This document shows, one piece after another, positions 29,291-53,056 of a DNA stretch of 64,000 nucleotides. This DNA is from Yuukianura sp. NJ FZ-2021 (taxonomy: Eukaryota). Below the pieces are notes generated by a model, which was not told the origin of the DNA, did not search any database, and saw only the letters and a list, made by a program, of their open reading frames with translations. Made by a program: the position numbers and the translations under genes. Numbering within the stretch: position 1 is the stretch's first letter; the number at the start of each line of letters is the position of its first letter. The stretch spans positions 1,116,001 through 1,180,000 of the forward strand of contig CM102286.1 in NCBI GenBank assembly GCA_046563655.1, given 5' to 3'.

Positions 29291-32200
29291 ATGGAGAAAT
29301 CTGTGGCTACTGTTCTTACCGAAAAAATATTTGGCAACGGCATCTCATTGACGGTAGAGACATAAACTATGAAATTATATATATTATATTAATTAATTAA
29401 TTTAAATAATAAATTTTTGCAAATTTGAATTAATTAATTTGAATTTGAAAAACTAGAATGGGAAGCACAAAGAAACTACGAACGGAGTCGAACATCATCC
29501 ACAAAAAAATGGAGTCACAAACGGACATCACAAAATTTCGAAAAGTGGGCTAAATGGCGTTGAAAATTTGAAGAAAAAAACTGTAGAGAATTCAAAAAAT
29601 TTGGAAAATTTGGACGGCGCAATCGCAATAGTCGGCATGAGTTGTAGATTTCCTGGAGCAAACGATTCAGAAGAATTTTGGGATTTGTTGATCAACGGTC
29701 GAAATCCGATTGGTCCATTTCCAGCCAATCGACCACCTCCGTTGAACGATGACCAGAAAAACTTTGAAGCGGGATTTTTGAAATGTGCTGTAGATGAATT
29801 TGATGCTAAATTTTTTGGAATGAGTCCCCGCGAAGCTCCATTTGTGGACCCCCAGCAACGGATTTTGCTTGAAGTAGTTTGGGAAAGCTTGGAAAACGCT
29901 GCGATGAATCCAGAAGAGTTGCGTGGGAGTGACACGGGCGTTTTTGTTGGAATTTGGAACGATGAGTACAAAAGCTGGTTTCCCGAATTGGGCTTGGATG
30001 CTGGAGATCATCATCGGATTTACTTGGGAAATGCTTTCAGTGCAACTGCAGGACGCATTTCACACTTCCTTGGACTTCATGGACCAAACTATTGTTCAGA
30101 GTGAGTCAAAATTTCAAAAAACGTAAAAAATCAAATTCTAAAATTTTTCTCCTTTCAACTTTTTTTTAGAAGTGGCTGTTCCAGTAGTGCCGGAGCTCTG
30201 CATCTTGCTTGCCAGGCGCTGCGCAATGGAGACTCAAAAATTGCAATTGCTGCCGGTGTGAATTTGGTTTTGCGATGCATCAATCCGATTGGTGGAGGAA
30301 AACTTCTGGAAGGACCAGTGTTTGCACAGGACTTCAAATGCAAATCTTTTGATGAGAGGTACTATGAACAAAAACAAAATTTGAAAAACTTTTCCAATTT
30401 TTTTTAAATCAGTTTTTAGTGTAGATTAATTACATTTATCTCATTACAGAGCTGATGGATATGTGAGAGCAGAAGGATGTGGATCGGTGGTGCTTCGTCC
30501 ACTAGCTGACGCGATTAAAGCAGGCGACAATATTCACGGCGTCATTCGCGGAATTGCACTAAATCACAATGGCTCGTCCAGTTTTGGAAGTCCAAATGCC
30601 ATTGCAATGGAAATGGCTGCACGGGAAGCTTTGAGAGAAGCAAAAGTAGAACCACGTGACATAAGCTTTGTAGAAGCACATGGGACAGGAACTGCCGTAG
30701 GAGGTACGGTAGACTTTCTAATTTATGAATTGGGCAAAATACAAAACAAATGGCAATTGCACAAACGGGAGTTAGAAAATTTCCTTACTCTGAGGTTTTA
30801 TTGTCATTGCAAAACCCACCGAATAGGCAAATTTTGCAATGACAATAGCACATGGCAAGGAAATCTTCTAACCTCCCGTTTCTGCAATTGCCATTTGTTT
30901 TGCATTTTGCACATTTCATAAGTTGGAGGCTTCATTGTAATGAAATGACAAATTTTTAGTTAACTTCAGTTTAATTAATTAACTTAAACTAGTTTATACT
31001 AACGTAACCTAAATTATGTTTCAGATCCTGCGGAAATCGATGCATTTGAAAAAGTATATTCAGCTGACCGGCGGGAAACGCTGTTCGTGTCTTCGGTTAA
31101 GACGAACATGGGACACTCAGAGTCATGCGCCGGATTGGCGGGGCTAATCAAAGTCCTTCTTTGTTTCAAACACAAACAAGTTCCACCACACCTTCATTTT
31201 CAAAATTTAAACCCGCGAATCAATCTTGACAAAATTCCGGCATGTATTCCCCTCAAACCGACCGCATGGGCACAAGAAAACCGGATTGCCGCAATCAATT
31301 CCTGTGGCATGAGCGGCACCAACGTTCACATGATTGTTCAAGAACCACCGCCAATCAAAACTTTGAAAAAGCACCACATTGCAAAACTACCACAAATGAT
31401 TGGCATTTCTGCAAAATCTGAAGAAGCTTTGGACGCTCTTTGTGCAAAATATGTTTCTCATTTTGAGCAAGATCCGAAACTAAGTTTGAGCGACATCGCT
31501 TTTACACTTAACACCGGAAGAGCAAACTTATCGCATCGAATTGGCCTTGTTGCAAAAGATACGCAAGACTTTATGATAAAACTGACGCAGAAGATGTACG
31601 TCAAAGGCAAAAATTCGACGCAGAAGCCAAAAGTGATTTTTCTGTTCACGGGTCAAGGGTCACAGTACTTTCGAATGGCTAAAAACGTGTACGAAAATTC
31701 GACAATTTTCAAATTGGCGCTGGATCAATGTGAAACACTTTTCAAAAAACATGTGACCATTTCGCTCAAAAAAGTTTTGTGGGAAGATGCTGCCTTGCTG
31801 GACAAAACCGAGTACTGCCAACCTGCAATTTTTTCAGTCCAGTATGCACTCGTTCAACTTTGGAATTCTTTTGGCATTGTTCCTGACATGGTCCTTGGTC
31901 ACAGCGTTGGTGAGTTCTGCGCATCGGTCTGCGCAGGAGTAATGTCACTGGAAGATGGAATGAAGTTAGTTGTCGCCAGAAGCAGACTTGTGAATTCTTT
32001 GGATGGCGGGAAAATGCTGGTTTTGAAAACGTCGCCAGAAAATTTGAAAAATTTGCTTCAGGAGTTCGGTGAATCTGATTTGCATTTTTGTCTGGATGTT
32101 GCCGCCGAAAATTCGGATGAAGAAGTTGTCGTTTCTGGCAGTTTTGAAAATGTTCAAAAATTTGGAAATTTTTGTGAATCAAAAGGACTTAAAACCAAGA

Positions 32201-35200
32201 TGTTAAAAGCTTCTCACGCTTTTCACTCAAGACAAATGGATCCAATCGCACGAGAATTTGGACAAGTTGCTTCAAAAATTAAACCACAAAGTTTCAAATG
32301 TCGATACATCTCTGGTACTTTAGCACGGGAAATCAAATTTAGTGATGAACTTGATGCTAAATATTGGGTGCGTCATTTGCGTGATACCGTGAGATTCCGT
32401 GACGCCAGTATCAAAATTGGACAAATTTTGGAAGAATCTAAAATTTTTGTTGAAATTGGCAGTCAACCGATCCTGTCTGCCCTGACCATGGCCAACATTC
32501 CCAATTGTGCAAAAGACACATTTTGTGCTTCACTGCGCAGAAGTGAAGACGACTTGTCGTCAATTTTGAATTCACTGTCCAAAATGTTCGTAGCTGGAAT
32601 GCAAATTTCATGGAAAAAATGGTTTGGACAAAATTTGGCCAACAAAAAACTAATTCTACCGACGTATCCGTTTCAACGCCAAAAATTTTGGTTTCAGCGT
32701 GAAGATTTTTACGCCGCCGAATCGTCGCATCATCTTGAAATTCATCCGACGCTTGGTCGTTCCCTACCAACGCCATTTTCAGAACATGTTTTTACCCAAA
32801 TTTTGTCAACTCGAAATTTAAAATTTGTTGCAGATCATCGCGTTGCAGAAAAGATAATTTTTCCTGGAACGGCTTACTTGGAAACCATCATGGCCGCGGG
32901 GTGTCACGTTCTCCAAGCCGGGAAAATCCAAGTTCCAGTTTCAATCCAAAATTTTGCAATTGATGCTCCACTGGAACTGGAAAAATCTTGCCAAATTCAA
33001 ACCATTGTGAAACCAATCGGAACAGATGAGGTAAAATTTGAAATTGCAATTCACAAGCAGTCACGTGAAGATACACAGAAGTGGAAAAGACATGCAACTG
33101 CTGCGTTTGTGCCAAGTCACATGCGTCACATGCAAGTTTCTCACAGTGCCCCAATTGATGTAGAAGAAATCAAGAAAAATTCAAAGTTTGTGGAATGCAC
33201 TACGAAAGCTTACGATGCCCTGGGAAAATCTGGATTCCAATTTGGCCCCAAATGCAGATCGATTTGTCGTGCCTGGTTTACAGAAAATGGACTTTTGGCT
33301 GAAATCAAAATGCCGAAAGATTCAAATTTGTTCATTTGTCATCCGGTTGTATTGAACGCAATGGTGGAAACTTTTGTGTTGCATCCAGCACTGGATCTTA
33401 CGGAAGACGTTTTGCTTCCACTTGAATTTGCAGTTGGAATCAGAAAATTTATGCTGCACTCTCAAAATTTTACATCTGAAGTTTATGCATACGGAGCGTG
33501 GGAAAATCGGAATGTGAACGTCACTTTACTGAATTCAAAAAATGAAATTTTGGCAACAATGGAAGGAGTTGAATACATCCAGTCCTGTGCTTCCAAATTT
33601 TTGAGTTCACTGAATCAAGAAAACAGAGATGAACTACCTCTACTCTATGAAACTTGGCGTCCGACCAATCACAGTTCGCCTGGCACGGATTCGACCAATC
33701 ACAGCACGTCTTGCAAAGAACCGACCAATCAGCAACTGACTTCGTCTGTTATGACTTGCGCAAATCCATCCAGGTCTACTTTGCTTGTGCTTGGAGACGA
33801 TTCTCAATTGGAATCAAACCTAACTTCAAAATTGTTATGGCGTGGACGCAATGTCATCAAAGATTATGCGCATGATCAGTCCAGAAATTTAGAAGGAGTA
33901 ATTTTTATGTCGACCGTGATCCCTTCAAGCTTGGATGAAAATCAAGAAAAATGTAAACAATTTGTCAAACTTTGTCAAAAGTTGATTTTGACTTACGAAA
34001 ATGAAAATTCAAAACCAACAATAGTTTTGGTGACACGCGGAGTTCAGTACTTGGAAGACGAAGGACCGGGAAACCCAAACGCAGCTACAATTTCAACTTT
34101 TGTGAGATCTTTTGCCAACGAACACAAAGATTTCAAAGTCAAAGTCATTGACCTTGACCAGAGCGAGGTCAACTTCGATTCGGAAGCAGAAGCAGCATTG
34201 AAAATAATTTGGTCAGAAGACAGCGAAATGTTTACGGCAGTTCGACAAAATCAAATTTTTGTTCAGCGATTGACATTTGCTGAAAAAATGAAACAGCCAC
34301 TTCCGTTTCCAAATTCAAACCGATTTCAAGTACTGACACCAACAACAAAAAATTTGAACGATTTGGAAATTTCTGTGGCGCCAAAAGTGGATCCAATTGA
34401 AGATGAAGTTGAAGTGGCTGTGAAAGCAACTGGAATAAATTCCGAAGATTTGTTTTTTATCCAATCCGAATTTTCGGATTCAACCAATCACGAACCAGGT
34501 TTGGAAGTGGCAGGAATCGTTTCAGATGTAGGACCAACCTGTACAAAATTTAAAATTGGTGACGCCGTTTTTGGAATTGTTGAGGGAAGCGGATTGGCAT
34601 CGCATGTTACAGTATCGTCAAAATTTTTGATGCGAAAACCAGATCACATGACTTTCACTTCGGCTGCTTCAGCTCCAGTTGCCTTTCTAACATCTTTTTA
34701 TGGACTCCAAGAACTTGCAAATTTGAAACCCGGAGAGCAAGTTTTGATTCACAAAGCAGTTGGAGGAGTTGGTCTCGCAGCGATTCAAATTGCAAAAAAT
34801 GTTGGAGCTGAAATTTTTGCAACAGCGGGAAGTCGAAGGAAACGAGCCTATTTGAGATCAATTGGAATCAAACATGTTTACCACTCCAGAAATACGGATT
34901 TTGGAAACGAAATTTTGAAAGACACAAATGGAGCAGGAGTGGACGTCATTTTGAATTCCCTGACTGGACCACATTTTAAAGAAGCTTCACTCAAAGCCTG
35001 TGCTCAAAATGGCAGATTTGTGGAAATTGGGAAAATGAATATTTGGACGGAAGAGGAAGTGAGGAGCATGCGTCCAGACGTTAAGTATTTTGTGGTGGAA
35101 CTTGCTGAAACTTCTCGCAACGAACCAGAAAAATTGAACGAATTGGCGGGAACTGTTGAAGCTGAATTTGAAAAAGGGTCGTACCAGGGGCTTCCACATG

Positions 35201-36520
35201 AAGCTTTTCCTCTGGACATGATCAGAGAAGCTTTCTTTTACTTTCAAGAAGCAAAACACATTGGGAAAATTGTCATCAACATTCCAGAGGCCAAAGTTTC
35301 ACCAGCAGGAAAAATTGAATTTAAAAATAATCTTTTCCATTCACAAAGTACGTACTTGATCACTGGGGGGTTGGGTGGACTTGGGCTTCAAGTGGCCAAG
35401 TGGATGAGTCAATCAGGGGCCAGGAATCTAGTTTTACTGGGACGCAGCAAACCTTCAACCGAAGTTCAAGAAATTTTGAATGTCATGGCTGCCAGTGGAT
35501 GTCGAACGGTAGCTCTGCAAGGAAATGTTGCAATTTACGAAGAAATGGAAACGTGTTTAAAATCTTTGGAAACTTTAAATTTCCCGCCACTTCGTGGAAT
35601 TATGCATGCGGCGGGAGTACTAGCAAGTGGAGTTGTGCAAAATTTGACATGGGAAAAATTTGAAACTGTTTTTCGGCCTAAAGTTCAAGGGACTCTGAAT
35701 TTGCACAAATTGACCCTAGGTTGTGACCTCGAATTTTTTTTGATGTTTTCAAGCATTGCTGCTATTTTTGGCAGTCCAGGAATTGCCAACTATTCAGCGG
35801 CCAACGGATTTTTAGATTCATTCATGAACTACCGACATGCAATGGGGCTTCCAGCCACGAGTATAAATTTTGGACCTTGGGCAGAGGTACGATTCAAAAT
35901 TTTCAAAAAACTCAGATAAAACGCAAATCCAAAAAAAAATTCAATTTTTAACATTTTTTTTTTTTGCAAATTTTGTGTAGGCTGGAATGGCTGTCACTGA
36001 TTTCAAAGACGGAGATTCTGGAATTTTCCATTTTCCACCCGCTCAAGGCATCTCTGCAATAGAAAACATTCTTCGAACCGGAATTAAGCGGTCGACGGTT
36101 TTGAAAGTATCGGATTGGAGTACCGTGAAACACAACTTCCGACTCGGTAACTACTTGGACGAGATTCAATCAACTACCAAAGTCGAACCTTTGAACAGCG
36201 ATTGGCACGTTTCTGTTTTGGAAGAAATCCAAACTTGTTCTACATTGGCAGAAAAACAGACCAAAATCCAAAATTTTTTGATGAAAACTTTGAAAGAGAC
36301 GCTTCGAGTGGCAGAAAAGGAACAATTAGATCCAGATCAAAATATTTTTGAACTTGGAGTTGACTCGCTCATTGCCATCGAGTTGCGCAACCGCCTTCAA
36401 GCAACTTTTCAAAAAATGCAACTAACAGTAAGTGCTTTGCAATACTCAAGCGTCCAGCGTCTTGCTGCTTACTTAGTTGGTTTGATGCAACTCGAAAAAC
36501 AAAATCAAGGTCAACCGTAA
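29291..36520 (+). CDS. Type I reducing polyketide synthase A: KS-AT-DH(variant)-ER-KR-ACP, no cMT and no release domain
   Basis: Exons 29291-29353, 29457-30100, 30170-30358, 30450-30703, 31025-35886, 35981-36520. KS: ESGCSSS, EAHGTGT, KTNMGHSE. AT: GHSVG and HAFHS. DH: HRVAEKIIFP. ER: GGVGLAA. KR: TGGLGGLG and NYSAAN. ACP: GVDSL. Start codon less certain. Confidence 0.95.
30711..30932. mobile_element. MITE-like fold-back element in a PKS-A intron
   Basis: ~100-bp imperfect inverted arms (gcaaaatacaaaacaaatggcaattgca...attgtcattgcaaaa / ttttgcaatgacaat...tgcaattgccatttgttttgcattttgc) around a ~17-bp spacer. Confidence 0.8.
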
Positions 36521-38153: not shown

Positions 38154-41100
38154 ATGAAAGGTAAAAGTTGTCCATTTAAAAGATTCGATAAAAAGATGTT
38201 TTTTAATAAAAAAAAAGTGTTTAAAAAAATATTTTTAAAAAAAATTCAGTGAACATATAAAAAATTGAACGTAATTAAACATCATCAGCTAAAAAAAAAC
38301 TAAAATTCATCCCAAAAATAACGATTAATTACATTTTAGTTCATTTAAAATTGCAAAGTTTTCAACTTTGTACATAAGTTTTAACCTTGATTGTAGATGT
38401 TGAAATTTTTCCTGTTATTTTTGGAAATGGGAAGTTTGTTTTTTAGCATCAGCGTAAAAAGTAGTCATTCGACTTCTGGAAAGTTTCAAAATCCAATTTT
38501 CTTATAAGTGTCCAATAAATTGCAAATCAAGTTTAAGTAGTTTAGTATTTTTTGAAACATTTTGGTCATTATAGTTGAAAAAGAGTGATTTCTGATTCTA
38601 AACTAGTTTGATGGTGAAAACTAGTTCTGTGGACAACTTTGTTGTTGTTTGATGGCTCAATATCTACATAGGTGTCAAATAGTTGTCGAAGTGCAATTAA
38701 CAATGACTGACAACTTACAGTAACAATTACATCCTACTTTGTACTTTTAATTTTGTAGAACCCCAGTGCTGGGTGACCTTGGCTCAAAGCGATGCGGAAG
38801 GATGGGCAGCCACTGTCCTTGCAAGGTCAATTCGGAATTCCCTCACTACTCGGCCTCTGACAATTGTAATTTCGGAAAATGTGACGCTACCAATGAAGTA
38901 ATTAAAGTTATACTAATTTATATTCAACCTGTTTATGTGATCTCATACCACTGCTTCGAATGAATGGCTCCGAAATGAAATGCTACGAATGAATTGGTGC
39001 GAAACCAATTGCTGCGAATGGCATATTTACTGAACGGCAAATTAAAAATAGTAGCTAAAACAAAAATTTCCTACAAAAAATGTTCACCTAGCGTAATGAG
39101 TCTTACAACTCCAACGAGTGTAATTTTATAATTGTTAGCCCTAAAGCTAACTTTACAATTGTTAGGTTAACTTAACCTCCTTACTGTGAACTAATACAGT
39201 TCGGAGCAACTTTGTTGTCTTTCGGAGGAATTGGGTTCGTAGGGATTCATTCGGAGCGTTTCATTTGAAGTAATGTCGTGATACCGTTTAGGTAAACTCA
39301 TTTATGTAAACACTGTTTAGGGTATTGCTGCAGAAGGAATTCGACGCAGTGTTTCGATTTGATTTGGCTGAAGTAGGTGGACATGCCAATTGTGGGCTAT
39401 TGTGGCTCTGGAACTTACGGAGCTGGACAAAATGTGTTTATGTTGACGCAAACTCCTACGTAAGACAAAGCTTCAAAAAATTGAGATTTAAACAAAATTA
39501 ATTTTTAACTTGCGCCAATGGTTCATCGTAGATGCTCAAAAATTGTGACGATTTGTTTCAAAAACCATCGTTTTCTGCTGTACAAAACGAAAATGGTACA
39601 TTCTCTACGCAGCTATTCGTTTTCAGGCCAAATGTCACTGAATTTGACCAACTTTTGGAACTTGCTCAAGATGCCAAAGGTTAAAAATTTAACTCAATTA
39701 ATACTGCATGTGCTATGAAACATTTGAAATTTCGAAATCTCAATTTTAAAACTTCAAATTTCAGGAGATGTTGTGAAAATTCTCAACTGGAACTTCAACG
39801 AATCCTTTGCCAACCCCAAAAATCAAATTCGCGATTCCGTGCTATGGAAAGTTACTGAGCTTGGAAGCAATTCGAAGTAAGATGCGGGCTACATACTAGT
39901 TTATGTTATATGTGAATACTGTTCGTCCTACTAAACTAAAAGTATTAAAATATTGTATTAGTATTATATTTTATTGTTGTTTATATAATTTTGCATCTTA
40001 TAGTCACTTGGATCCAAACATGATAAGTTTTGATGGACCAGCTTGGAAAAAAACCGGGACGAATGACGCCATCAACGAAATTGTGCACAAGTGGATTGCA
40101 ACTTTTGTGCACGAAGTCATTCCACACATCAAAGGAATGAAGGTACACATAATATTACTTAATACATATATTTCATATTATTACATATTAATATATTTCT
40201 ATATATTATACATTAATATTGTGGCGTCTGGCAAAAATTGGTCTATCCCTACCCGAATTATTGTCAAAAACATTTTTTTTAATTTTTTAATTTTAGATTT
40301 AATTTTAATTTAATTTTAGAATATTTTTAAAATTTGCCCAAATATTTACTTACAAGATTAGGATTGCATGGAAGAAATGAGTTGCGAGAGCCGCTCTTTC
40401 ACCTCATGTAGAATAGGAAATGATAGGTCAATGGTTACAGCTCTTCCCGGATTGAAGCGATGTGGGTTCGAATCCCACTCGGTTCATTAATTTTTCTACA
40501 CGCTGGCTTGTCTCTCAAGCCATGTGAGCCTTGAATCTCACAATGTATGATGTTTTAAATGTTATGTAGGATGAAGGTACGAGGAAGGCATTGATGGAGG
40601 CCATTGAAGAACGTCAACTTCCTGTCGTCAATGGTCCAGCGTCCACTCGTCCACAAAATCTGGAGGATCTTGGAACTTTGAAAGACGCCATTGCAGTAGT
40701 GGGCATGAGTTGTCGCTTCCCTGGAGCCAACAACGCCGATGAATTTTGGGAAGTGCTTGCCAGTGGCAGAGATCCGATCCGAAAATACCCGGCTGACCGT
40801 CCACGTCCACCGAGTCACCGATACACTGTTGAGGATGAAAAGGCTTTTGAGGCGGGATTTTTGAAATGTGCGGTAGATGAATTCGATGCAAAGTTTTTTG
40901 GAATTAGTCCCCGCGAAGCTCCGTTTGTGGATCCTCAACAGAGGATTTTGCTTGAAGTGATTTGGGAGAGCCTTGAAAATGGAAACATCAATCCACAAAA
41001 GTTGCGTGAAACTAACACTGGCGTGTTTGTTGGGATTTGGCAACAGGAGTATAATCAGCATTTCCCAGATTCACTTGCATTCACACCAAATGAATTTCAC

Positions 41101-44100
41101 CATCGATATTTGGGCAATGCCTTCAGTGCTACCGCCTCTCGTATCTCACATTTCCTTGGACTTTATGGACCAAACTACTCAATCGAGTAAAAAATATGAC
41201 AAAAGCAGCAAAAATTTTAAAAATAGAAAAAAAAAGTTTAGCATTTCTGAATTTCTCAAAATTTGATTTCGTAGAAGCGGATGTTCAAGCAGTTCCAGCG
41301 CAGTGCATCTCGCTTGTCAGAGTCTGCGTAGAGGTGAAACTACGCTGGCAATTGCCAGCGGTGTGAACCTGGTTTTACATTTCGTGAATCCAATTGGAGG
41401 AGGCGACGGAGATGCTGTTGTGCTCTCAGCTAATTTTAGATGCAAAACTTTTGATGAGAGGTTCATTTTTAAACTAAAAAAAAATTTTCAAAAAATTCTT
41501 TTAAAAAAAAACTAAATTTTTTTTTTGTTTTTTATTTTTGTTGCGAAACAGTGCTGATGGTTTCGTGCGAGCAGAAGGTTGTGGTGCAGTCGTATTGAAA
41601 CCTCTAGCACACGCCATGCGCGATGGAGACAACGTGATTGGCCTAATTCGCGGGACGGCCCTGAACAATGACGGCCCTGCGACCAGTTTTGGAACGCCAA
41701 ACGCCAGAGCTCAAGAACGAGCTTACCGCGAAGCTCTGGCCGACGCTGGAGTAAAACCGAACGAAGTTAGTGTCGTAGAAGCTCATGGAACAGGAACGAT
41801 TGTGGGAGGTAAAAACAAAAATTTAGATTTTTTTTCTTTTTCTGAACAGGTTATGCCATAACTCCTGCTTTTAAAAAATTGTTTGTTTTGAATTTTTTCT
41901 ACGATTTGTTAGCCTCGCACCTTGTAAAGTAAATGCGATTGGTCCAAAAGTTATTTTTTTTAAATCAGACTTATGGCATAACATGTTACAGCATTTGTAC
42001 ATATGACCGTTATAGTAACCTTGGATGAAACAAAACCGTTAAAACATTTTTTTTCAATAAGTTTTGCATTTCAAAATTTTTTAGACCCCACTGAAATGTA
42101 CGCCATTGGACAAGTTTACTCTGAAGACAGAACTGAACCACTTTTCGTCAGTTCTGTAAAAACGAACATTGGGCACTCCGAGGCATGCGCAGGAATGGCT
42201 GGGCTGATCAAAATCCTTCTTTGTCTCAAAAACAAACAACTTCCACCGCACCTTCATCTTGAAAGACTAAATCCCCGAATCAATCTTGAATCCATTCCGG
42301 CCATAATTCCACAAGAAGTGACTGCCTGGACAGCCGAAACAAGAATTGCAGCAGTCAGTTCATTCAGCATGAGCGGAACCAACGTCCACTTAATTGTTCA
42401 AGAAACTCCCGAAATTTTGAAATCTCCGGCCAAAATCAAAAAAGATGAAAACTCAAAACCGTTTGACATGATTACAATTTCGGCCAAATCGGAAGAAGCA
42501 CTGGAAGCTCTTTGTCAAAAATACGTAACCTATTTGGAGGAAAATTCAAATTTGAATATCAGCGATATCGCTTATACGCTCAACACTGGAAGGGCAAACA
42601 TGGCACACCGAATTGCTCTTGTAGCAAAAGATACTGCCCAAGTAGTTTCAAAATTACAGAGTCGTTCGTATGTCATTGGAAAAGCACCAACACAAAAACC
42701 CAAAACGATTTTCCTGTTTACGGGTCAAGGGTCACAGTACTTCAGTATGGGCAAAAATTTATACAACATGTCACCAGTATTTCGGTCGGCATTGAGAAAA
42801 TGTGACACCCTTTTTAAAAAATACTTGCGCTGTTCTCTCAAAGACGTTTTGTGGGGAGATGCAACTTTTTTGGAACAAACAATTTACTGTCAACCGGCAA
42901 TTTTTTCGATTCAATTTGCACTTTTCCAACTGTGGAACTCATTTGGAATTTTCCCAGACTTTGTTGTTGGTCACAGCGTTGGTGAGTTCTGCGCATCAGT
43001 TTGCGCAGGCGCACTGTCACTTGAAGACGCAATGCGATTGGTTATCGGCAGAAGTAAGTTGGTGGATTCTCTTGAAGGCGGGAAAATGATGGTCGTCAAA
43101 ACATCACCAAGTGAAACACGCGGATTGATTCAAGAATTCACGGCGTCGATAAAAGAAAAAGACGTTTGGATTGACGTCGCCGCTGAAAATTCAATGGAAG
43201 AAGTCGTCGTTTCTGGAACGGAGAAAAACGTATCAGATTTCGGCACTTTTTGCTCATCACGTTCTTTTAAAACACAGATGATCAGTGCATCTCACGCTTT
43301 CCACTCTCGTGAGATGGATCCAGTGTTGCCTGAGTTTGGTGCATTGGCGTCTCGAATCACCCCGAGCAAACTCAATTGTCGTTACATTTCTGGAACATTA
43401 GCGCGCGAATTGTCTGAAACCGATTTCGACTCTTGTTATTGGATGAGACATTTGAGAGATACTGTCCGATTTTGCGATGCAATCAAATATGTCAATCGCT
43501 TATTTGACGAACCCAAAGTTTTTGTTGAAGTCGGAAGTCAACCGATTTTGTTAAGCCTGACAATGGCAAATTTGTCTAGCACTACAACTGCAACATACTG
43601 TCCATCACTACGCAAAAGTGAAGACGATTTGACCTGCGTGCTGAACTCACTTTCAAAAATGTTTGTCGGTGGAGTCGATATATCTTGGGATAAATGGTAT
43701 CCCGAGGCCAGGAAATTATCTTTACCGACTTATCCATTTCAGCGCCAAAAATTTTGGATTCGAGATGAAGACGAAGGCATTCCGATTCCGCCTATGCTCC
43801 ACCCAATTCTTGGACGTCATTTGCCAGCTCCAGTGTCAGATCACGTTTTTGCACAAGTTTTGTCATCTAAAGAGTTAAAGTACGCTGAAGATCATCGTGT
43901 CGCTGAAAAAATTATTCTTCCAGCCGCAGCGTATTTGGAAACAATCATGGCCGCTGGATGCCAAATTCTGCAGGGCGGCAGAGTTCAAGTTCCGTTCAGC
44001 GTCGAAAATTTACAAGTCGAAGCAGCTTTGGATCTGACAAAAAGTTGCCAAATTCATACAATTGTGCGGAGTTTAGGAGAAGAAGGTGACATTAAATTTG

Positions 44101-47100
44101 AAATTGGAATTCACAAACAAGTTTCCCGCGAAGATTTGGACAAATGGAAACGTCATGCAGTGGCATCATTCTCTCCAAGTTTGCATGTTGCCGCTACTGA
44201 AGATTTTGAAATTCAGGAAATTTTGAATCGTTTAGAGCTAGTTGAAAAAATATCTGAAGCGTACGACGCAGTCGCAAAAGCGGGAATTCAATTTGGGCCA
44301 AAATTTCAATCAATCATCCGCGCCTGGAAGGCAGAGACGGAACTTTTAACTGAAATTGAAATGCCGCCAGATTCAAATTCATACATTTGTCATCCAATTG
44401 TCCTAGACGCTATGATTCAAACTTTTGCTCTCCGGAATGCCATTAAGTCACGTGACAAACAACAAGAACTTCAACTTCAACTACCAATCAGCATCAAGAA
44501 ATTTACTTGGTTTTCGCGGGAACCTACTCAAAAAGTGTTTGCTTATAGTACATGGACTGGAGATGCTCAAATGCAAGGAACCGTTACACTTTTAAGCGAA
44601 ACTGGACAAACTCTAGGCATAATGGACGGCTTAGAACTGATTTCCACCACAGTTGCAAATTTTCTGCGCGTCATGAACTCCGAATCCAACTTGTTACCCG
44701 GGTTTCTAGAAGAAGTTTGGCGCCCGACTTCCGGAATTACACGAAACAGACAAAATCCGGCCAATTTTGAAATTGTTGCATCAACATACATAAACCGAGC
44801 TTATGGAAGTGTTGGACAAACGTACTTTGACCGATGGTTTGAAAGATATGACAAGCAATTTAGTCGGTTTCTCGTTCGGGCTGTAATTGAATGCAAATGG
44901 CCATGGGGACCAATTGGAGCAAAAATTCGAACGGGTGATTGGACAGCAGTGGCTCCTCCTGGACTTCTTATATGCAAAACGTCACGATTACAACAAATTT
45001 TAACAGAATATGATTATTTGAAAAAAGTAGGAGAAGATGAATTTGAAATTTTAAAAGATTTACCGCCTTTGGATCAATGTGAAGCTGAAATTGAGGAGGC
45101 ATGGGAAGCTAAAGATGAGTCGAGCCAAGGTGATACTTTTTCCCAGGAGTTTGCAAGACGCTGTGGAACTTACATCACTCCCGTCCTACAAGGATCGGTA
45201 ACGCCGATTGCCTATTTGTTTCCCGCCGATCCGCTGGAACCCGGAGCGGTACGATTTTATAACGAAGGTAAATTTTGAGAATTTAAATTTAAAGAAATGA
45301 AAGTTCACTCTTATAAGAACTTTACGATTGGCACGAAAAACTTTTTTTTACCGACCAAATCAGACTGAGTTTTGTGAGGCTCACATGCTTTGTGGACAGA
45401 GTGAAAAATAGTGTAGAAAAATATTGGAACCGATTGGGATTCGTACCCACATCTCTTCAAGTACAGCGAAATGCTCTAACCCTTGAGCTATCTGGTCCTT
45501 CGTTTGACAACGCCACTGTTGCCAAACTCAGCCGTTTCTAAACTGCAAGTTTTGCTTTAGTTTGAATAATGTTGTTTATTAGGTAAAGGAATTCGAGAAG
45601 CTGCAGAGATTGCAGCAGCGCTCATCATTGACAGCGTCTTAAGCGCCCACGGTGCTCCTGGAACGTTACGAATTCTGGAAGTTGGGGCTGGAAGTGGAGC
45701 AGCTTCTGTATTCGTCCTGGAAGGATTAGCAGCAGAAAACATTCCATTTCACTACACATTTACAGACATCTCACCTCTCTTTTTACATGAAGCCAAGAAA
45801 AAATTTACATCCAAAAACATAACTTTTTCATTGTTCAACATTGAAGAAGATCCGATTGGTCAAGGCTACGCTCCCGAAGAATTTGATATCATTCTTGCCC
45901 ATAATGTCATTCATGCTACAGCCGATGTTCAAAAAAGTCTCAAAAATTTAAACTTGATACTTCGGAACAACGGACTTCTGGCACTCGGCGAAACTTTTAA
46001 AGACGTTGTCCATTGTTCACTTTCCTTTGGTTTTCTGGACGGTTGGTGGCGATTCACCGATGACCGAAAAAATTCTCCGCTTTTAAGTCACGAACAATGG
46101 AAAACTGCATTCGAAAAAGCTGGATTCGGAGATGCTGCTGCCTGGACAATCTATAACGACAACTGCGGAGCCGTGATTGGTCGAAAGGAGAAAATTCAGC
46201 CAACCGACGAAAGTTCAGCGTCAAATTCAAATGCATGGCTCTTTGTCTCAGATCAATCACAACTTGAACTGAATTTGAAACAAAAAGCGGGATTGGCGGG
46301 AAGAAAATGTTTGAATTTTGAGGACGAAGTTCCAGAGGGCCTCGAAACGGTCATTTTTCTTTGGACTTCTCCAGTCGTATACTCCGAAAATCAAGTCAAA
46401 TGTCAACAACTTTTAAATTTTTGCCAAAAGTTGATTCAGAAATACCAAGACATCAAGGTCAAACCGAAATTTATTTTAGTGACACGCGGAGTTAACTACT
46501 TGGGTGACGCAGGATCGGGAAATCCAAATGTCGCTACGAGTTTTTCCTTTGTCCGTACATTTGCAAATGAACATCCAGATTTGAATATTGTTGCGATTGA
46601 CCTTGACCAAAATGAGGTCAATCAAGAACGAGAGGTCACTGAACTTTTTGCAACGATTTGTTCCAAAGAAAAAGAAGCGATAAAAGCTATCCGCGAAGAT
46701 AAAATTTTTGTGCAGCGTTTGGTTTCCTTGGATAACCGAAATTTAGCCATTCCAATGCCAAATTCAAATCGATTCAAAATTACCAATCCACCGTCCAAAA
46801 GTCTCCACGATTTACAAATTTCTGTGGCACCAAAAATTGAACCAGTTGAAGATCAAGTTGAAGTGGCAATTCGTGCAACTGGTTTGAACTTTCGTGATCT
46901 TTTTCTCATTTTGAGACCAGAAGGATTCGACATTCCAGAAAACATTAACATGGAACCAGGCCTGGACATTTCTGGAGTCGTTTCAGCCGTTGGACCAAAT
47001 TGCACAAAATTTCAAATTGGAGATGCCGTTTTTGGATCAGTTCCGGGAGGCGGTTTGGCATCGCACATCATTACATCTTCAAAATTGTTAATTCGAAAAC

Positions 47101-50100
47101 CACAAGAAATGACTTTCCCCGCTGCAGCAACAATTCCTGTAGCATTTTTGACAGTTTTCTACTCATTTCACGAATTGGCAAAACTTTCTCGTGGAGATCG
47201 AGTTTTAATTCATGTTGCAACTGGTGGAGTTGGATTAGCGGGAATTCAAATGGCGAATCACGTGGGTGCTGAAATTTTTGCAACAGCGGGAAGTCGGAGG
47301 AAGAGAGCCTACTTGAGATCAATTGGAATCAAACATGTTTACCACTCCAGAAATACGGATTTTGGAGACGAAATTTTGAAAGACACAAATGGAGCAGGAG
47401 TGGACGTCATTTTGAATTCCCTGACTGGACCAAATTTTAAAGAAGCTTCACTCAAAGCCTGTGCTCAAAATGGCAGATTTGTGGAAATTGGAAAAATGAA
47501 TATTTGGACGGAAGAGGAAGTGAAGAGCATGCGTCCAGACGTTAAGTATTTTGTGGTGGAACTTGCTGAAACTTCTCGCAACGAACCAGAAAAATTGAAT
47601 GAATTGGCGGGAACTGTGGAAGCTGAATTTGAAAAAGGCGCGTATCAGGGGCTTCCACATGAAGCTTTTCCTCTGGACATGATCAGAGAAGCTTTCTTTT
47701 ACTTTCAAGAAGCAAAACACATTGGGAAAATTGTCATCAACATTCCCGAGGCCAAAGTGTCACCAGCGGGAAAAATTGAATTTAAAAATAATCTTTTCCA
47801 TTCACAAAGTACGTACTTGATCACCGGAGGGTTGGGTGGAATTGGGATGGAAGTGGCCAAATGGATGAACCAATCAGGAGCCACCAATTTGATCCTCGTT
47901 GGTCGAAATCCACCATCGGCAAGTAGTCAGGATGTGCTGGATTGTTTGAATAAGAATGGCTGTCGAGCAGTAGCTATGCAAGCAGATATCGGCAATTACG
48001 ACGAATGTGCTGCAGTTTTGAATTCTATCAAAAATTTAAATTTCCCGCCACTTCGTGGAATTATGCATGCCGCAGGAGTTCTTGCGGATGGAATTGTGAT
48101 TAATCAGTCATGGGACAAATTTGAAGCAGTGTTTAAACCTAAAGTCAATGGAACTTGGAATTTGCACAACTTGACCTCTGGATTTGACCTTGAATTTTTT
48201 ACAATGTTTTCAAGTATGGTCTCAATTTTTGGTGGACCGGGACAAAGTAATCATACGGCTGCCAATCGTTTTATGGATTCATTTGCACATTACCGAAATT
48301 CACTTGGGCTTCCCGCCAACAGCATAAATTTTGGTCCATGGTCAGATGTAAGAAATTTTTTTCATTTTTTCACTTCTTTTCAGAAATCTGAGTTTTTCAG
48401 TTTTTTTTTTTGGAAATCTGTTTTTCACTGTTTTTTTATAACTCTGCAGGTTGGTGTAGCTGCAAATCTTAAAATGACGCAGGATGGATACATCGGCATT
48501 AAATTTTTCACTCCTGCGCAGGGACTGCTTTCGATCGAACACATGCTAAAAACTCATCGACGTCAAGCAATTGTTGCTGAAGTGTCGGATTGGAACTTTT
48601 TGAAACAACTTTGTCGACTTGGAAATTTTTTTGACGAAATCAAAACAACGACATCCAATTCTGCTAATGGAATTGAACAATACAAAGCCATTATTGAAGA
48701 AATTAAAAATGCTACACCAGAAACCCGTCAAGCCAAAATTGAAGACTTTCTGGAACAAGCTTTGAAAGAAACACTCCGAATTCCAGAAAATGAGCAATTG
48801 GATCGTGAGCAAAACTTTTCAGAAATCGGAGTCGACTCACTCATGGCAATGGAGTTGCGCAATAGGCTTCAAGGAATGTTAGGAGACAAGCAGTTGACAG
48901 TCAGCGCTCTACAAGAAAACAGAACCATACGCAGCCTTTCTGCGCATATGGCAAATCTCATGAATTCCGACGCATCCGTCGTTTCAGTGGAATCGTTAGT
49001 CACCCAAGACATAATTTTACCAGCCGACATTCAAGTTACGACGAAACTCCCGCAAAAACCGAGCGAATTCAAGAATATTTTGTTGACAGGAAGCACGGGT
49101 CACTTGGGGGTCAACTTGATTCCGGCTTTGCAGAACCAAAATTCAAATTTGGTGTTGCATTGTATCATTCGCGGGAAAAATTCAGAAGATGCTGAAAACC
49201 GGTTGAAGAAAACACTGAATTTGTATTCTTTGGGAGAAAAAGTAAATTTTGAACGAATCCAAATTTTGGCGGGAGATTTAACCAGACCGAATTTCGACTT
49301 GACTTTGGAACAATACGAGGCTTTTGCAGAGAAGATTGATGCTGTTGTGCACTGCGCAGTAAAGTCAAATCATTTAGAAGAATACAATTCGTTTGGCGAA
49401 GGGAGTCTGCGCAGTAACAACGTTTTAGCGACCGTGAACGTTTTGCGTTTTGCTGCTACCGGAAAAACTAAAGCCGTTTTGTACGCGTCCTCACTTTTAG
49501 CTGCAACTGAAGTAAGAGAAGACGGTTGCTTAGTTGAAAATTTTCCGGCTGAGGAAGATGTTGGCACTTCGATCAAAAATGGTTACGTTCTGTCAAAATT
49601 CGTTTCGGAAAAGTTAATGTCACAAGCCCTTGACCGTGGAATTCCGGTAACAGTTATCCGGTACGCCAGTATCGTCGGAAACAGCATAACCGGTTTCATT
49701 CCTACCGGAAAAAATCATTCATGGAGCATCATGACTTCTTGTTTTCGAATCAAAAAATTTCCAGCTATGAATCAAAATGGAATTCCAGTTATGGCTGTTG
49801 ACACAGCGGCGCAAGTTACTGCACAAATTTTCTTAACCGATTCAATGGAAACGGGAGTTTACAATTTGTCTGGAAAATCAATAATTTCCGAAGAGGAAAT
49901 GGCTACAGGCATAGCAAAATTTGGAATTGTAGGAGAATTTGTTCCGTTTTCAGAGTGGCGGGATACAGTTTTTGAAAATATGGATAAAAATGAATTGGCG
50001 CCATTTTTTAGCATTTATGGTGACGATGAGAATACACAGGCTCAAGCATACCTTGGCATGCATCCATTGGCGACTCAAATTGCAGCACTTGAATTTAATT

Positions 50101-50219
50101 CAGTTAGTGAAAAAGTGCGCCGAAATTGTCCCGAGTTTGAAAAAAGTATTGTTTCAATGGAAGATCTTATGCAGCGCCATCTACAATTCCATTTTGATTC
50201 ACTTACAAGCCAACCCTAA
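38154..50219 (+). CDS. Type I reducing polyketide synthase B with N-terminal glycogenin-like (GT8) domain: GT8*-KS-AT-DH-cMT-ER-KR-ACP-R
   Basis: Exons 38154-38160 (tentative), 38759-38897, 39321-39459, 39532-39679, 39765-39876, 40004-40142, 40570-41186, 41275-41460, 41552-41808, 42085-45267, 45583-48347, 48450-50219, all phase-compatible. KS: ESGCSSS, EAHGTGT, KTNIGHSE. AT: GHSVG, HAFHS. DH: HRVAEKIILP, LDAMIQ. cMT: ILEVGAGSG, YTFTDIS, HNVIHAT. ACP: GVDSL. R: TGSTGHLG, GYVLSK. Confidence 0.92.
38759..40142 (+). other. Five exons encoding a degenerate glycogenin-like GT8 domain at the N-terminus of PKS-B
   Basis: QCWVTLAQSDAEGWAATVLARSIRNSLTTRPLTIVISENVT; LWNLRSWTKCVYVDANSYMLKNCDDLF; LFVFRPN; KILNWNF; KWIATFVHEVIP. 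Collinear with the glycogenin pattern AFVTL...ALVLG.SL...TTR.L / W.L..Y.KCVF.DAD..VL.N.DDLF. Confidence 0.85.
38943..39281. mobile_element. MITE-like element with ~50-bp inverted ends and ~15-bp cgaatgaa-type subrepeats, in a PKS-B intron
   Basis: tcataccactgcttcgaatgaatggctccgaa... matches the reverse complement of ...ttcggagcgtttcatttgaagtaatgtcgtga. Similar subrepeats occur at ~61150-61260. Confidence 0.65.
40416..40540 (+). mobile_element. tRNA-derived SINE-like element, copy 1
   Basis: A-box-like taggtcaatggtta and B-box ggttcgaatccc. The tail tttttctacac...catgtgagcct is shared with the copy at 45362-45498. Confidence 0.65.
41846..41986. mobile_element. Small MITE-like element with ~30-bp inverted ends in a PKS-B intron
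   Basis: acaggttatgccataactcctgcttttaaaaaa versus the reverse complement of the right end, acatgttatgccataagtctgatttaaaaaaa. Confidence 0.6.
45362..45498 (-). mobile_element. tRNA-derived SINE-like element, copy 2
   Basis: Reverse complement GGACCAGATAGCTCAAGGGTTAGAGCA...TTGAAGAGATGTGGGTACGAATCCCAATCGGTTCC has a tRNA-like head with A and B boxes, followed by the tail shared with copy 1. Confidence 0.7.
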
Positions 50220-50312: not shown

Positions 50313-51096
50313 TTATGGATCTTGATTCTGTGAAACAAAAAAGTTTCCAGCCACAGGAGCCGTCGAAAGCCGATTTTCTTGCACAAATTTTTTCCAGTCC
50401 AAATTTGTTATGTAAGGCAACCGTCCGGTGTTTTCAAGCGTCAAATTCAATTTCCCGCCAAGTTGCTCATGGACCAGAAACACATAACGTCGAAGGCCAA
50501 CTCCTTTTGGTGGCATTGGACCAAAGTACTTGACCTTGACCTCACCGTGACCTTGACCTTGACCTCTTTTCTCAGGTTGAATGTTCACTTGAAGCCAATG
50601 TGGAACTGAGCGATGAATTGGATTTGCTCGACTCACGGCATCTATCCCTACAAAGCAAAATTTAAAATTTTCATTAAAATTTTGCTTTTTTTTGTAATTT
50701 TTATTAAAATTTTGCTTTTTTGTCATATTTGTACCGAGAAATGCCAGCATGTAGACAGCATCTACTTTTCCCATCCACTGAATCCAGTAAGGCTGTTCCG
50801 AAGTTTGACCTGGGGTCAACTCCATTCCTGGGTACACGGGAGTAGTTGTGCCGTAAGTCACCCATAACATTTCTTTTGGACTTCTATCCAAAATGTCCGG
50901 TACAATTTCAGCTGATAAAAATGCGTCTTCAACCATCATCATCTGACAAGTGACCAGGTTCGGCTTAAACATCTAGCAAAATTTTTAAATTTTGAAAATA
51001 TTAAATTATGAAAAATTCAGTTTGAGTTCATCTAAAGAATTGCTGTTACAATCTTACCAATTCCAGTAGCGCCAACAAATGCCAAAACCGATTCAT
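50313..51096 (-). CDS. Phosphatidylethanolamine-binding protein (PEBP/RKIP family), probably secreted
   Basis: IVPDILD; PGMELTP; HWLQVNI; YFGPMPPKGVGLRRYVFLVHEQ; PVAGNFF; short hydrophobic first exon MNRFWHLLALLEL. Confidence 0.9.
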
Positions 51097-51637
51097 CTTT
51101 TTTTTTTCTACCAATGGCAGCTCAGGTCAACAATTTTTGAAACACTGGCTCATTTACATATACGCACGTCGAAATTATAACACACATAAAAAATTGTAAA
51201 AGTTGTGTTGCGAAATGAGAAATGAGCTTGTATTTGATTGGATGCACCTCTTTGGTTTCAGTTTTGCGGTCCTTGGCATGTCACTTTGACACTCCAAGGT
51301 AAAATTTTGACAATTTTTCATACAAAAATACACACAATTTTTCATACAAAAATAGACACACTTTTTCATACACAAATGCATGTAAGCAAACCATAATTCA
51401 AGTGTTTTCGTAAAATGTTTTGCTTTTGATCCACAAATTACGTTATGTGAACCATGAATCATTAACTTTTCAAGCTCGAAAGAATCACTTTCAAGTTTTT
51501 TATTCAAATTGATATAATTGTAGGTAAACAAATTTCAAAATTTTAGAAAAGTGCAAAAAGTTTCTGAAATTGACTATTTTTATTTTTTTTTGCAAAATGT
51601 TTTTTTTTCTCCAGAAATTGTATTTTCCAAAGAATGG

Positions 51638-52449
51638 TTATAGTTTGAGCTCAACGGTTTTTGAGTATGTTGTAGTAGAGAGCTCAGACATATTTGGTTT
51701 CAACTTTTGAATTTCGTTATACACCGAGTCTTGTATCGTTTTTTGCAGAGCTGGATCACTCAGTGGAAGTTTGGGATAAATTCGGATATCCAAATTTTCA
51801 AAACCAAAAGTCATACTAATTTTTGACAATTTGAACCAGTTGCCAGGCGACGGTAGAACCGTGCCGGATCCACGCAGATCTGCACCGTAGATGGCTCCAT
51901 AAGCAGAACCTACCACCAAAAGTTAATATCAAAATCAAAAATTTAGCTTCTAAAGTTATGTTTTTTGTTACCTTCGCTGATTGGCGTAGGAACTTGAAAA
52001 AAACTTGCAAAGTAATATTTCAGAACGTAGTTGGTGGAGGCACTCATGTTGCCCACAAAATTTTCAAAGGTCATGTCTCTTGTCAAGGGGTCAATTTGGA
52101 GCCCTTTGACCTTGAACGTCGAGAGCCCACTGAAGGTCAACTTGCTTAAAATTAGTTCATAAAAACCTAGGTTTGGAGACAAAGGATGCGGAAATTTCAA
52201 AGGAATGTCCAGGGGAAACACAAATGGATCCAGAAATGGAATCCCATTGGCTGCACTTCCCTTTAACATCACTCGGCGCCAATTTTCAAAAGATTGGAGC
52301 ACAAGAGTTTCCAGCGGAATTGTTCCAGTTCCTGGAAGGGGTACTGAAATTCCATTTCGATCTTCTTCCAGGTCAGAGGTCACTTGTGATAAAAATGCTA
52401 TTTTAGACACCAGCAATAACAAAATATGACAACTTTTAAAAATTTTCAT
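51638..52449 (-). CDS. Haemolymph juvenile-hormone-binding/takeout-like lipid carrier
   Basis: Signal peptide; GIPFLDPF; LTFSGLSTFKV; two exons; about 250 aa. Confidence 0.65.
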
Positions 52450-53056
52450 TCTAAACTGCGAAAAAGAGTTGGGATGAAATAGCACAAAAATGCACTTTTT
52501 GACAAAACAAAAATAGCAGTGGCAAGGTTGTTTTATAGAGGATTATTTTGTCAAAACAGTGACGAAAATTATCACAGCAATAATTTTCATAATTTTCATA
52601 AAATTTTGTTATATAATTCAAGGTGTTTGGTGGAATTCGACATTGAGAATGAAACAAAAACCGCAGATGTGTGGAAGAATAATTTATTGAGATAGGAATA
52701 ATAGTTGTGCAATAAATGCTATTCATTAACGCAGTTCGAGGTCGAACAAAGAGTGGAATTTTTTCTGAATTGAATGATTTTTAGCACGTTTTTACAATTT
52801 TGACAACTTAACCAAACGAAAACTTCTGTCAATTCATGTTTTCTTCTAAATCACTAAAACGTTTTTTTAATGACGCAAACAAATCTTGTGCTGAATTCTT
52901 GGTTGAATTCTGATTACTTCTGATTGAATTCTGATTGTAATCAAAACCAAAAATTTGCTTACACGGACATCATCATGCGGCTTAAGATTTTCAAATTAAA
53001 GATTTGGTTACTAACTTTTTTGAGGTTATTTGGAAACTGTGCTAGTAGAGAGAACC

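Follow-up and report, generated by a model that had tools for sequence, protein, structure and literature searches.

The fusion gene and its neighbors

The window, by which we mean the whole stretch of 64,000 nucleotides analyzed, contains two tandem polyketide synthase (PKS) genes on the + strand. The second of these (38154–50219) is predicted from the sequence to comprise 12 exons separated by 11 introns, all GT-AG, and its spliced frame stays open for 3153 codons with a stop solely at the end. The predicted 3153-residue protein carries a glycosyltransferase (GT8) domain followed by KS-AT-DH-cMT-ER-KR-ACP-R in one reading frame. The preliminary description of this DNA had reported intact splice sites and neither stops nor frameshifts, and the complete gene model agrees.

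The GT8 part spans residues 1–228 and is encoded by a start exon of 7 bases plus five small ones. The probable start exon (38154–38160) would supply Met-Lys and the first base of a Glu codon; it has an ATG, and the GT donor of its phase-1 intron fits the phase of the next exon. Exon 2 (38759–38897) encodes the strand and helix that open the nucleotide-binding half (WVTL...ARSIR), with Tyr15 changed to Glu, and scores 71 bits against a profile of related domains built without the window copy. In exon 3 (39321–39459), the “lid” segment around Arg77–Thr83 is deleted or replaced and the DxD motif reads DAN. Exon 4 (39532–39679) retains the DDLF helix and has the PDxGWPDCFNSG loop replaced (FSTQ). 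Exon 5 (39765–39876) is without GGDQG and the Tyr195/Tyr197 segment, and exon 6 (40004–40142) has lost His212 and Lys218 while keeping the last helix. The domain was originally placed at 39421–40142; this end holds, but the true domain begins farther upstream, at 38154–38160 and 38759–38897, and then runs from 39321 onward. Every GT8 exon is 3n+1 bases long, so any three adjacent exons could be removed without a change of frame. Pfam matches none of the five small exons taken singly (0/5), and the domain is thus visible only once the exons are spliced. A PF01501 search of its own genome did not detect it.

A phase-0 intron (40143–40569) connects the GT8 exons in frame to the exon at 40570–41186, which encodes a roughly 38-residue linker, probably containing a short helix, and the start of KS, at about residue 267 of the model. 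Two further KS exons (41275–41460 and 41552–41808) hold the catalytic Cys and the first His. The end of KS, AT (GHSVG, HAFH), and DH (His and Asp present) are encoded at 42085–45267, the C-methyltransferase, ER, and KR at 45583–48347, and the ACP (GVDSL), the terminal thioester reductase (R) domain, and the stop at 48450–50219. Pfam recognizes KS, AT, DH, methyltransferase, ER, KR, ACP, and terminal reductase, and the KS Cys/His/His, AT Ser, DH His/Asp, ACP Ser, and R-domain motifs are all present.

The upstream paralog (29457–36520) has the order KS-AT-DH-ER-KR-ACP and carries no GT8, cMT, or R domain. Since it nests among GT8-bearing copies, it would have lost GT8 secondarily. It immediately follows a class 3 lipase gene. 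DJ-1/PfpI and ankyrin genes occupy the start of the window, and PEBP, JHBP, and sugar-transporter-family genes lie downstream of the PKS genes (50313–55272).

Relationship to glycogenin

The window GT8 domain aligns to the canonical glycogenin of the same genome (locus L068) with a local score of 211, against 32 ± 5 (maximum 54) for 1000 shuffles; BLASTP gives an E value of 5e-25 with 32% identity over 149 residues. A profile of 21 glycogenins yields 93.6 bits. Of the six introns that border the GT8 exons, five agree with host glycogenin in phase and order, and one differs. Two of the five, the one following the DxD strand and the one closing the domain, fall in the identical alignment column; among the other three, one is displaced by a single column, another sits beside a gap, and that of the start exon is phase 1 in both genes. 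The domain-end intron is the fusion joint: exon 6 stops at the same phase-0 intron that closes the catalytic domain of glycogenin. Past this intron, host glycogenin runs on to the glycogen-synthase-binding motif, so the PKS took the place of the glycogenin tail, and the C-terminal synthase-binding helix-turn-helix is present in host glycogenin and missing from the fusion. We also considered whether the linker helix could be a remnant of this motif, and rejected the idea because it scored best at the motif in only one of 12 glycogenin tails.

The fused domain shares with glycogenin (GYG1/GYG2, CAZy GT8, Pfam PF01501; PDB 1LL2, 3Q4S, and 3T7M) its sequence and intron positions, and probably its GT-A fold. 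Unlike glycogenin, it is without the DxD, the metal-binding His, the donor-sugar residues, the acceptor Tyr, and the synthase-binding tail, and it is joined to a PKS. A fusion of a bacterial-type PKS with a duplicate of host glycogenin, at the intron that ends the catalytic domain, is well supported by these comparisons.

For the PKS part, the named top matches are bacterial PKSs at 28%–37% identity. In a KS tree that included neither animal PKS nor FAS, the family clade nests in no sampled bacterial group. We take the bacterial origin of this part from the literature, in which a published tree of such fusions assigns it a bacterial donor (PMC13389597).

A family of fusions

A KS exon search of the genome returned 37 matches, from which 21 PKS loci were examined, namely the two in the window and 19 others; one 45% match and weaker, probably FAS-like ones were left out. 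GT8 exons lie upstream of KS in 16 of the 21. Fourteen of these 16 copies hold the whole domain in open frames, and two (L070 and L071) are decayed in its second half. In the remaining five loci, no GT8 exons were found within 5.7–6.6 kb upstream (four loci) or in the whole window (the neighboring paralog). These five copies fall in three separate places within the GT8-bearing KS clade (FastTree), which suggests at least three independent losses of the domain. As the GT8-less copies are scattered among GT8-bearing ones, the domain can be dropped.

Several of the other copies are irregular in their PKS parts. Four loci (L053, L054, L057, and L061) combine intact GT8 exons with PKS frameshifts, and L058 has intact GT8 exons and a gap of about 11 kb within KS; each could reflect decay or assembly error. 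The PKS parts of GT8-bearing L069 and L071 (with L078 and L082) are short: L069 matches KS-AT-DH and then ACP, and L071 extends little past KS.

In metagenomes, such GT8 exons occur at 12 of 53 loci, and a single assembly, from another species, accounts for 11; many of the other metagenome loci look bacterial or have too short an upstream sequence to judge. The phase-0 GT8-KS joint recurs in all 14 full-length copies and in L074, L075, L077, and L078 of the second species. That species also has a more divergent subfamily (L086, L088, L089, L090, L093, and L108) with its own replacement of the DxD strand and no counterpart among the examined loci of this genome.

Among proteins, a profile search with exon 2 identified a spliced 221-residue member (P0199) and two Orchesella dallaii models, one of them joined to PKS domains; most other long matches are true glycogenins. 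When 20 proteins were looked up, the only named non-glycogenin matches were from O. dallaii, which makes a springtail the most likely source of the window; the JHBP gene beside the PKS marks it as an arthropod. The nearest named match, CAL8109975.1, has the GT8 pseudo-domain joined to PKS domains. P0199 and P0314 (192 residues) have the domain without PKS sequence, and either may be cut short. Pfam finds no GT8 match in P0199, P0281, or P0314 (0/3). A word-index search of proteins of 87–2000 residues with exon 4 gave no match, and searches with the KS-AT-DH and R-domain regions returned bacterial, fungal, and amoebal enzymes, with no PF01501 fusion among the matches listed. An Atlas search with an 80-residue exon of L056 produced leads under 0.9 only, including one GT8 cluster at 0.84. 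Separately, the genome holds a nearly or wholly intronless GT8 gene whose DAD motif is intact (L001, G000:C3:3424574-3425401). It is only 26%–34% like glycogenin and is possibly another horizontally acquired glycosyltransferase.

We aligned 24 pseudo-domains (14 from this genome, seven from the 12 metagenome loci, and three proteins) with 21 glycogenins, leaving out L070, L071, and five short or poorly modeled metagenome loci. A quick tree, for which the careful search is unfinished, separates the two sets by a branch with 100% support. Pseudo-domains of the two species pair within it (L062/L075, L063/L074, and L069/L078), so the death of the domain and its duplication are older than the split of those species. 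These pairs are 52%–56% identical; their dS is saturated, and we use identities alone and do not interpret omega.

Loss of active-site residues

The four motif readings in the preliminary description are all present in the spliced model: YVDAN (39321–39459), FSTQ (39532–39679), G/DVVKILN (across the intron into 39765–39876), and SFDGPAW (40004–40142). Host glycogenin has DAD, FNSG, GGDQGLLN, and HFIGPNKPW in the same places. Residue numbers here are those of human GYG1, obtained as host index + 4 on the assumption that later indels are absent. The window domain is without Asp104, Asn133, Asp160, Asp163, Gln164, Tyr195, His212, and Lys218, and of 19 named functional positions it retains only Asp102 and Trp220. 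In glycogenin, Asn133, Asp160, Asp163, Gln164, and Lys218 are donor-sugar and catalytic residues; Tyr15, Arg77, and Lys86 are functional positions as well. DxD and the His bind Mn2+ in GT8 enzymes (bioRxiv 10.1101/764241); the window has DAN at the former and Ser at the latter.

The losses extend across the family. The full DxD is found in none of the 24 pseudo-domains and in 21/21 glycogenins, and His212 in 1/24 versus 21/21. Gln164, Tyr15, Trp128, Gly135, Tyr195, and Tyr197 are each absent from all 24 copies, Lys218 survives in one, and Asn133 in three. The first Asp of DxD (Asp102) persists in nine copies, including that of the window, and Lys86 in 13. At the DxD, His, and Lys218 positions, the 24 copies share no Lys or Arg that might stand in for the lost residues, and no polar active-site residue is retained throughout. 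Human glycogenin loses autoglucosylation through either Asp102His or Thr83Met alone (PMC13671788). With eight key residues gone from the window copy and no complete DxD in any family member, the fused domain is almost certainly catalytically dead, as the preliminary description proposed; the residue loss is directly visible, and the loss of activity follows by inference.

Selection on the domain

Pairwise codon models give omega values of 0.13–0.45 for GT8 in all 12 paralog pairs, each below 1 (p < 0.001 versus omega = 1). The dN/dS check thus favors the view that the domain is kept rather than decaying. Recent pairs, comprising four unsaturated ones (dS 0.19–0.31) and L059/L061 (0.37), have GT8 omega of 0.33–0.45, which the frameshifted PKS copies among recent paralogs (L053, L054, L057, and L061) could push up. 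For the three pairs among the window copy, L052, and L055, whose dS of 1.8–2.0 is near saturation, GT8 omega is 0.19–0.20 when one synonymous rate is used per pair. On the same basis, the window pairs show 0.05–0.06 for KS, 0.10–0.12 for AT, 0.18 for cMT, and 0.28–0.45 for the linker. The window-L052 pair alone gives 0.12 for psiKR, the non-catalytic region preceding ER, and 0.29 for the DH-MT spacer. An omega near 0.2 is the level expected of a domain merely required to fold. Within GT8, exons 2–4 have omega of 0.21–0.31 versus 0.39–0.55 for exons 5–6, in three of three unsaturated pairs.

A neutrally drifting GT8 copy would be expected to accumulate about 12 stops. The open frame had been read as a sign that the domain is functional, an argument that fails here because any stop or frameshift in GT8 would also destroy the PKS downstream; the frame is uninformative on the use of the domain itself.

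Probably retained fold and eroded binding surfaces

Of 94 positions conserved at 90% or more in glycogenins, 24 persist in at least 60% of pseudo-domains and 36 have all but disappeared, among them most of the named catalytic residues. Sixteen of the kept positions are hydrophobic, and the majority map to core strands and helices. Among the losses are the lid (68–85), the 124–135 loop, 157–166, 185–200, and 212–218. The relative P0199 was modeled with pLDDT 80.6 and a TM score of 0.83 to glycogenin, although 27 of the 30 alignment rows are glycogenin-type and bias the model to that fold; folded without an alignment, it reaches pLDDT 33. Judged from the model of this one relative, the GT-A fold of the fused domain appears to be kept.

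The surfaces by which glycogenin dimerizes and engages glycogen have fared differently. Gat1 and glycogenin form dimers through the same interface, and the Gat1 dimer groove is lined by D141/F143 and L212–W221 (bioRxiv 10.1101/764241). By sequence offset, these segments probably correspond to GYG1 125–128 and 193–202, and both equivalents are eroded or deleted in the pseudo-domains: Asp125 is present in 1/24 copies, Trp128, Pro129, Tyr195, and Tyr197 in none, and residues 197–200 are deleted in 83%–100%. In glycogenin, Tyr195 is the glucan carrier and a C-terminal motif binds glycogen synthase (PMC9287172). It had been suggested that the domain is a structural pseudo-enzyme that dimerizes the PKS or tethers it to glycogen. 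A dead but folded domain still fits, but dimerization through the glycogenin interface is unlikely, as the 124–130 loop and the 195–200 segment belong to the parts that have eroded most. Tethering through the established routes also looks improbable with Tyr195 in 0/24 copies and the fusion joint replacing the exons for the synthase-binding motif. With groove, Tyr195, and synthase tail gone, the dimer and tether proposals are left without a known mechanism.

Some residues are enriched only in the pseudo-domains, namely Trp17 (0.62), Ser40 (0.71), Glu41 (0.62), and Trp95 (0.75), and could mark a new binding surface. Asp56 reaches 0.92, the highest frequency of any family residue, yet it is common in glycogenins too. 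A two-copy complex prediction for P0199 that used no alignment gave a median of 0.19 against a mark of 0.32, which speaks neither for nor against binding.

Relation to described systems

The architecture matches cluster 11 of the HGT chimeras of Kapoor et al., PNAS 2026 (PMC13389597), whose representative, Folsomia candida XP_035703129.1, has a metazoan GT8_Glycogenin interval at 6–111 and a bacterial-derived PKS_KS interval at 250–350, in the same order and spacing as in the window gene. The tables list 47 genes (22 from F. candida, three from Orchesella cincta, and 22 from O. dallaii) and a minimum age of 242 Myr (Dataset S5), give the metazoan interval glycosyltransferase-activity GO terms, and report gene-wide dN/dS below 1 in all 23 multi-species clusters. 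Cluster 11 appears in the supplementary tables only, with no RT-PCR and no function or functional link proposed; the main text has no match for “glycogenin,” “polyketide,” or “cluster 11.” The architecture and the O. dallaii match suggest that the window family is cluster 11, and CAL8109975.1 itself is not among the entries of those tables. The fusion architecture is thus already in print in that supplement, and the deadness of the domain was not found stated in those tables. A literature search that covered sources other than the SI Appendix of PMC13389597 returned no paper calling a PKS glycogenin domain dead.

Horizontally acquired, bacterial-type modular PKSs are likewise expanded in the genome of F. 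candida (30 antiSMASH type I PKS clusters; OXA62418.1) (PMC5490193, PMC10764717). In the accessible text of these springtail PKS papers, “glycogenin” does not occur in PMC5490193, nor “glycosyltransferase” in PMC10764717. Another parallel is oskar (LOTUS + OSK), also a fusion of arthropod host and bacterial sequences with one part catalytically dead (PMC13389597 section 12; PMC7250577). In oskar, it is the foreign domain that has lost catalysis and binds mRNA, whereas in the window gene the host domain appears dead and the foreign enzyme looks active.

Interpretation and alternatives

The reading we favor, to which we give an even chance, is that the dead GT8 domain is a folded, non-catalytic cap under fold-level constraint. 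The joining of PKS and glycogenin duplicate would have occurred in a springtail ancestor, the PKS acquiring the first exons of glycogenin and probably its promoter and start as well. Binding of metal, donor sugar, and acceptor would then have been lost ahead of the family radiation, leaving an N-terminal cap with selection chiefly on its core, because the domain has to preserve the frame and adopt a fold that does the megasynthase no harm. The cap may aid expression, folding, or solubility of the enzyme. It would not glycosylate the polyketide and is unlikely to use the dimer groove, the tyrosine anchor, or the glycogen-synthase tail; the PKS domains themselves would build the product and release it reductively. 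Several observations count against a mere passenger. Of 16 copies, 14 keep the whole domain even though loss of any three neighboring exons would preserve the frame. The family dates back 242 Myr or more (PMC13389597), and cross-species identity is still 52%–56%. Exons 2–4 are under the stronger constraint, and some residues are enriched only in the pseudo-domains. The repeated losses of the domain speak for a passenger.

The same long retention in most copies would be expected if the GT-A fold had been neofunctionalised, its N-terminal half binding a partner protein, membrane, or metabolite and so localizing or regulating the PKS. The stronger constraint on exons 2–4 in all three unsaturated pairs and the concentration of family-specific conserved residues in the N-terminal half point this way, as does the oskar precedent (PMC13389597 section 12). 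However, the N-terminal half is also the core of the fold, where stronger constraint would arise in any case. None of the family-specific residues is invariant, the best (0.92) being common in glycogenins as well, and three or more losses of the domain and its half-decay in two copies (L070 and L071) also count against this reading. We regard it as a real but doubtful possibility. If a host glycosyltransferase had been made a dedicated binding or regulatory module of an acquired megasynthase, an oskar in reverse with a surface of Glu15/Trp17/Ser40/Glu41/Trp95, which we hold only tentatively, the module would have persisted for over 240 million years across dozens of springtail PKSs, and would be how foreign megasynthases became wired into animal cells. 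A domain that dimerizes the PKS through the glycogenin interface, or tethers it to glycogen particles, is improbable. The apparently retained fold and the dimers formed by glycogenin and Gat1 (bioRxiv 10.1101/764241) are in its favor, but the interface residues are nearly absent (Asp125 1/24, Trp128/Pro129 0/24, 197–200 deleted), and both the glucan-bearing Tyr195 and the C-terminal synthase-binding motif are missing. Moreover, type I PKSs already dimerize unaided through their KS and DH domains.

That the domain still glycosylates the released polyketide alcohol, through a residual or altered activity that needs no metal, is scarcely credible. The terminal reductase would yield an alcohol or aldehyde that could serve as acceptor, and the first Asp of DxD (nine of 24 copies, the window copy among them) and Lys86 (13/24) do survive; against this, no polar active-site residue is shared family-wide, no conserved Lys or Arg substitutes for the lost ones, and the single changes Asp102His and Thr83Met already abolish human autoglucosylation (PMC13671788). 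It is also very unlikely that the GT8 exons belong to a small gene of their own or to an alternative transcript and that the fusion is merely apparent. The 40142/40570 joint is predicted from the DNA sequence, P0199 and P0314 hold the domain without PKS (either may be truncated), and for cluster 11 the Folsomia representative is listed with RNA support “No” for the metazoan interval and without RT-PCR (PMC13389597). Yet exon 6 meets a good donor before any stop, the phase-0 joint recurs in 14 full-length copies and in L074, L075, L077, and L078, CAL8109975.1 of O. dallaii joins GT8 to PKS domains, and cluster 11 comprises 47 such gene models (PMC13389597).

The family offers a clean test of foreign-gene domestication, with copies that have the host domain, lack it, or keep half of it, and with one GT8-bearing/GT8-less pair side by side in the window; captured host exons could be mere passengers, assist folding, or provide a new binding module. 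For expression of these PKSs, it matters whether the first 228 residues are retained. Springtail PKSs, a large source of natural products from animals, have hardly been studied, and the glycosyltransferase annotation that the fusion proteins now carry would mislead product prediction, as the residues argue against glycosylation.

The KR domain also bears an unusual residue. At the position of its catalytic Tyr (residue 2533, exon 45583–48347), the window PKS has His, as do 12 of the 14 family copies in which the motif was matched, compared with Tyr in 177/177 database matches; the GT8-less neighbor has Tyr and L061 has Leu. This would indicate either a His-type KR or inactive KRs alongside intact-looking DH and ER domains. 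Finally, two related tRNA-like elements lie in PKS introns, one at 45426–45498 (−), called tRNA-Tyr by ARAGORN, and a degenerate one at about 40421–40485 (+) in the GT8-KS joint intron; they are probably a tRNA-derived SINE.
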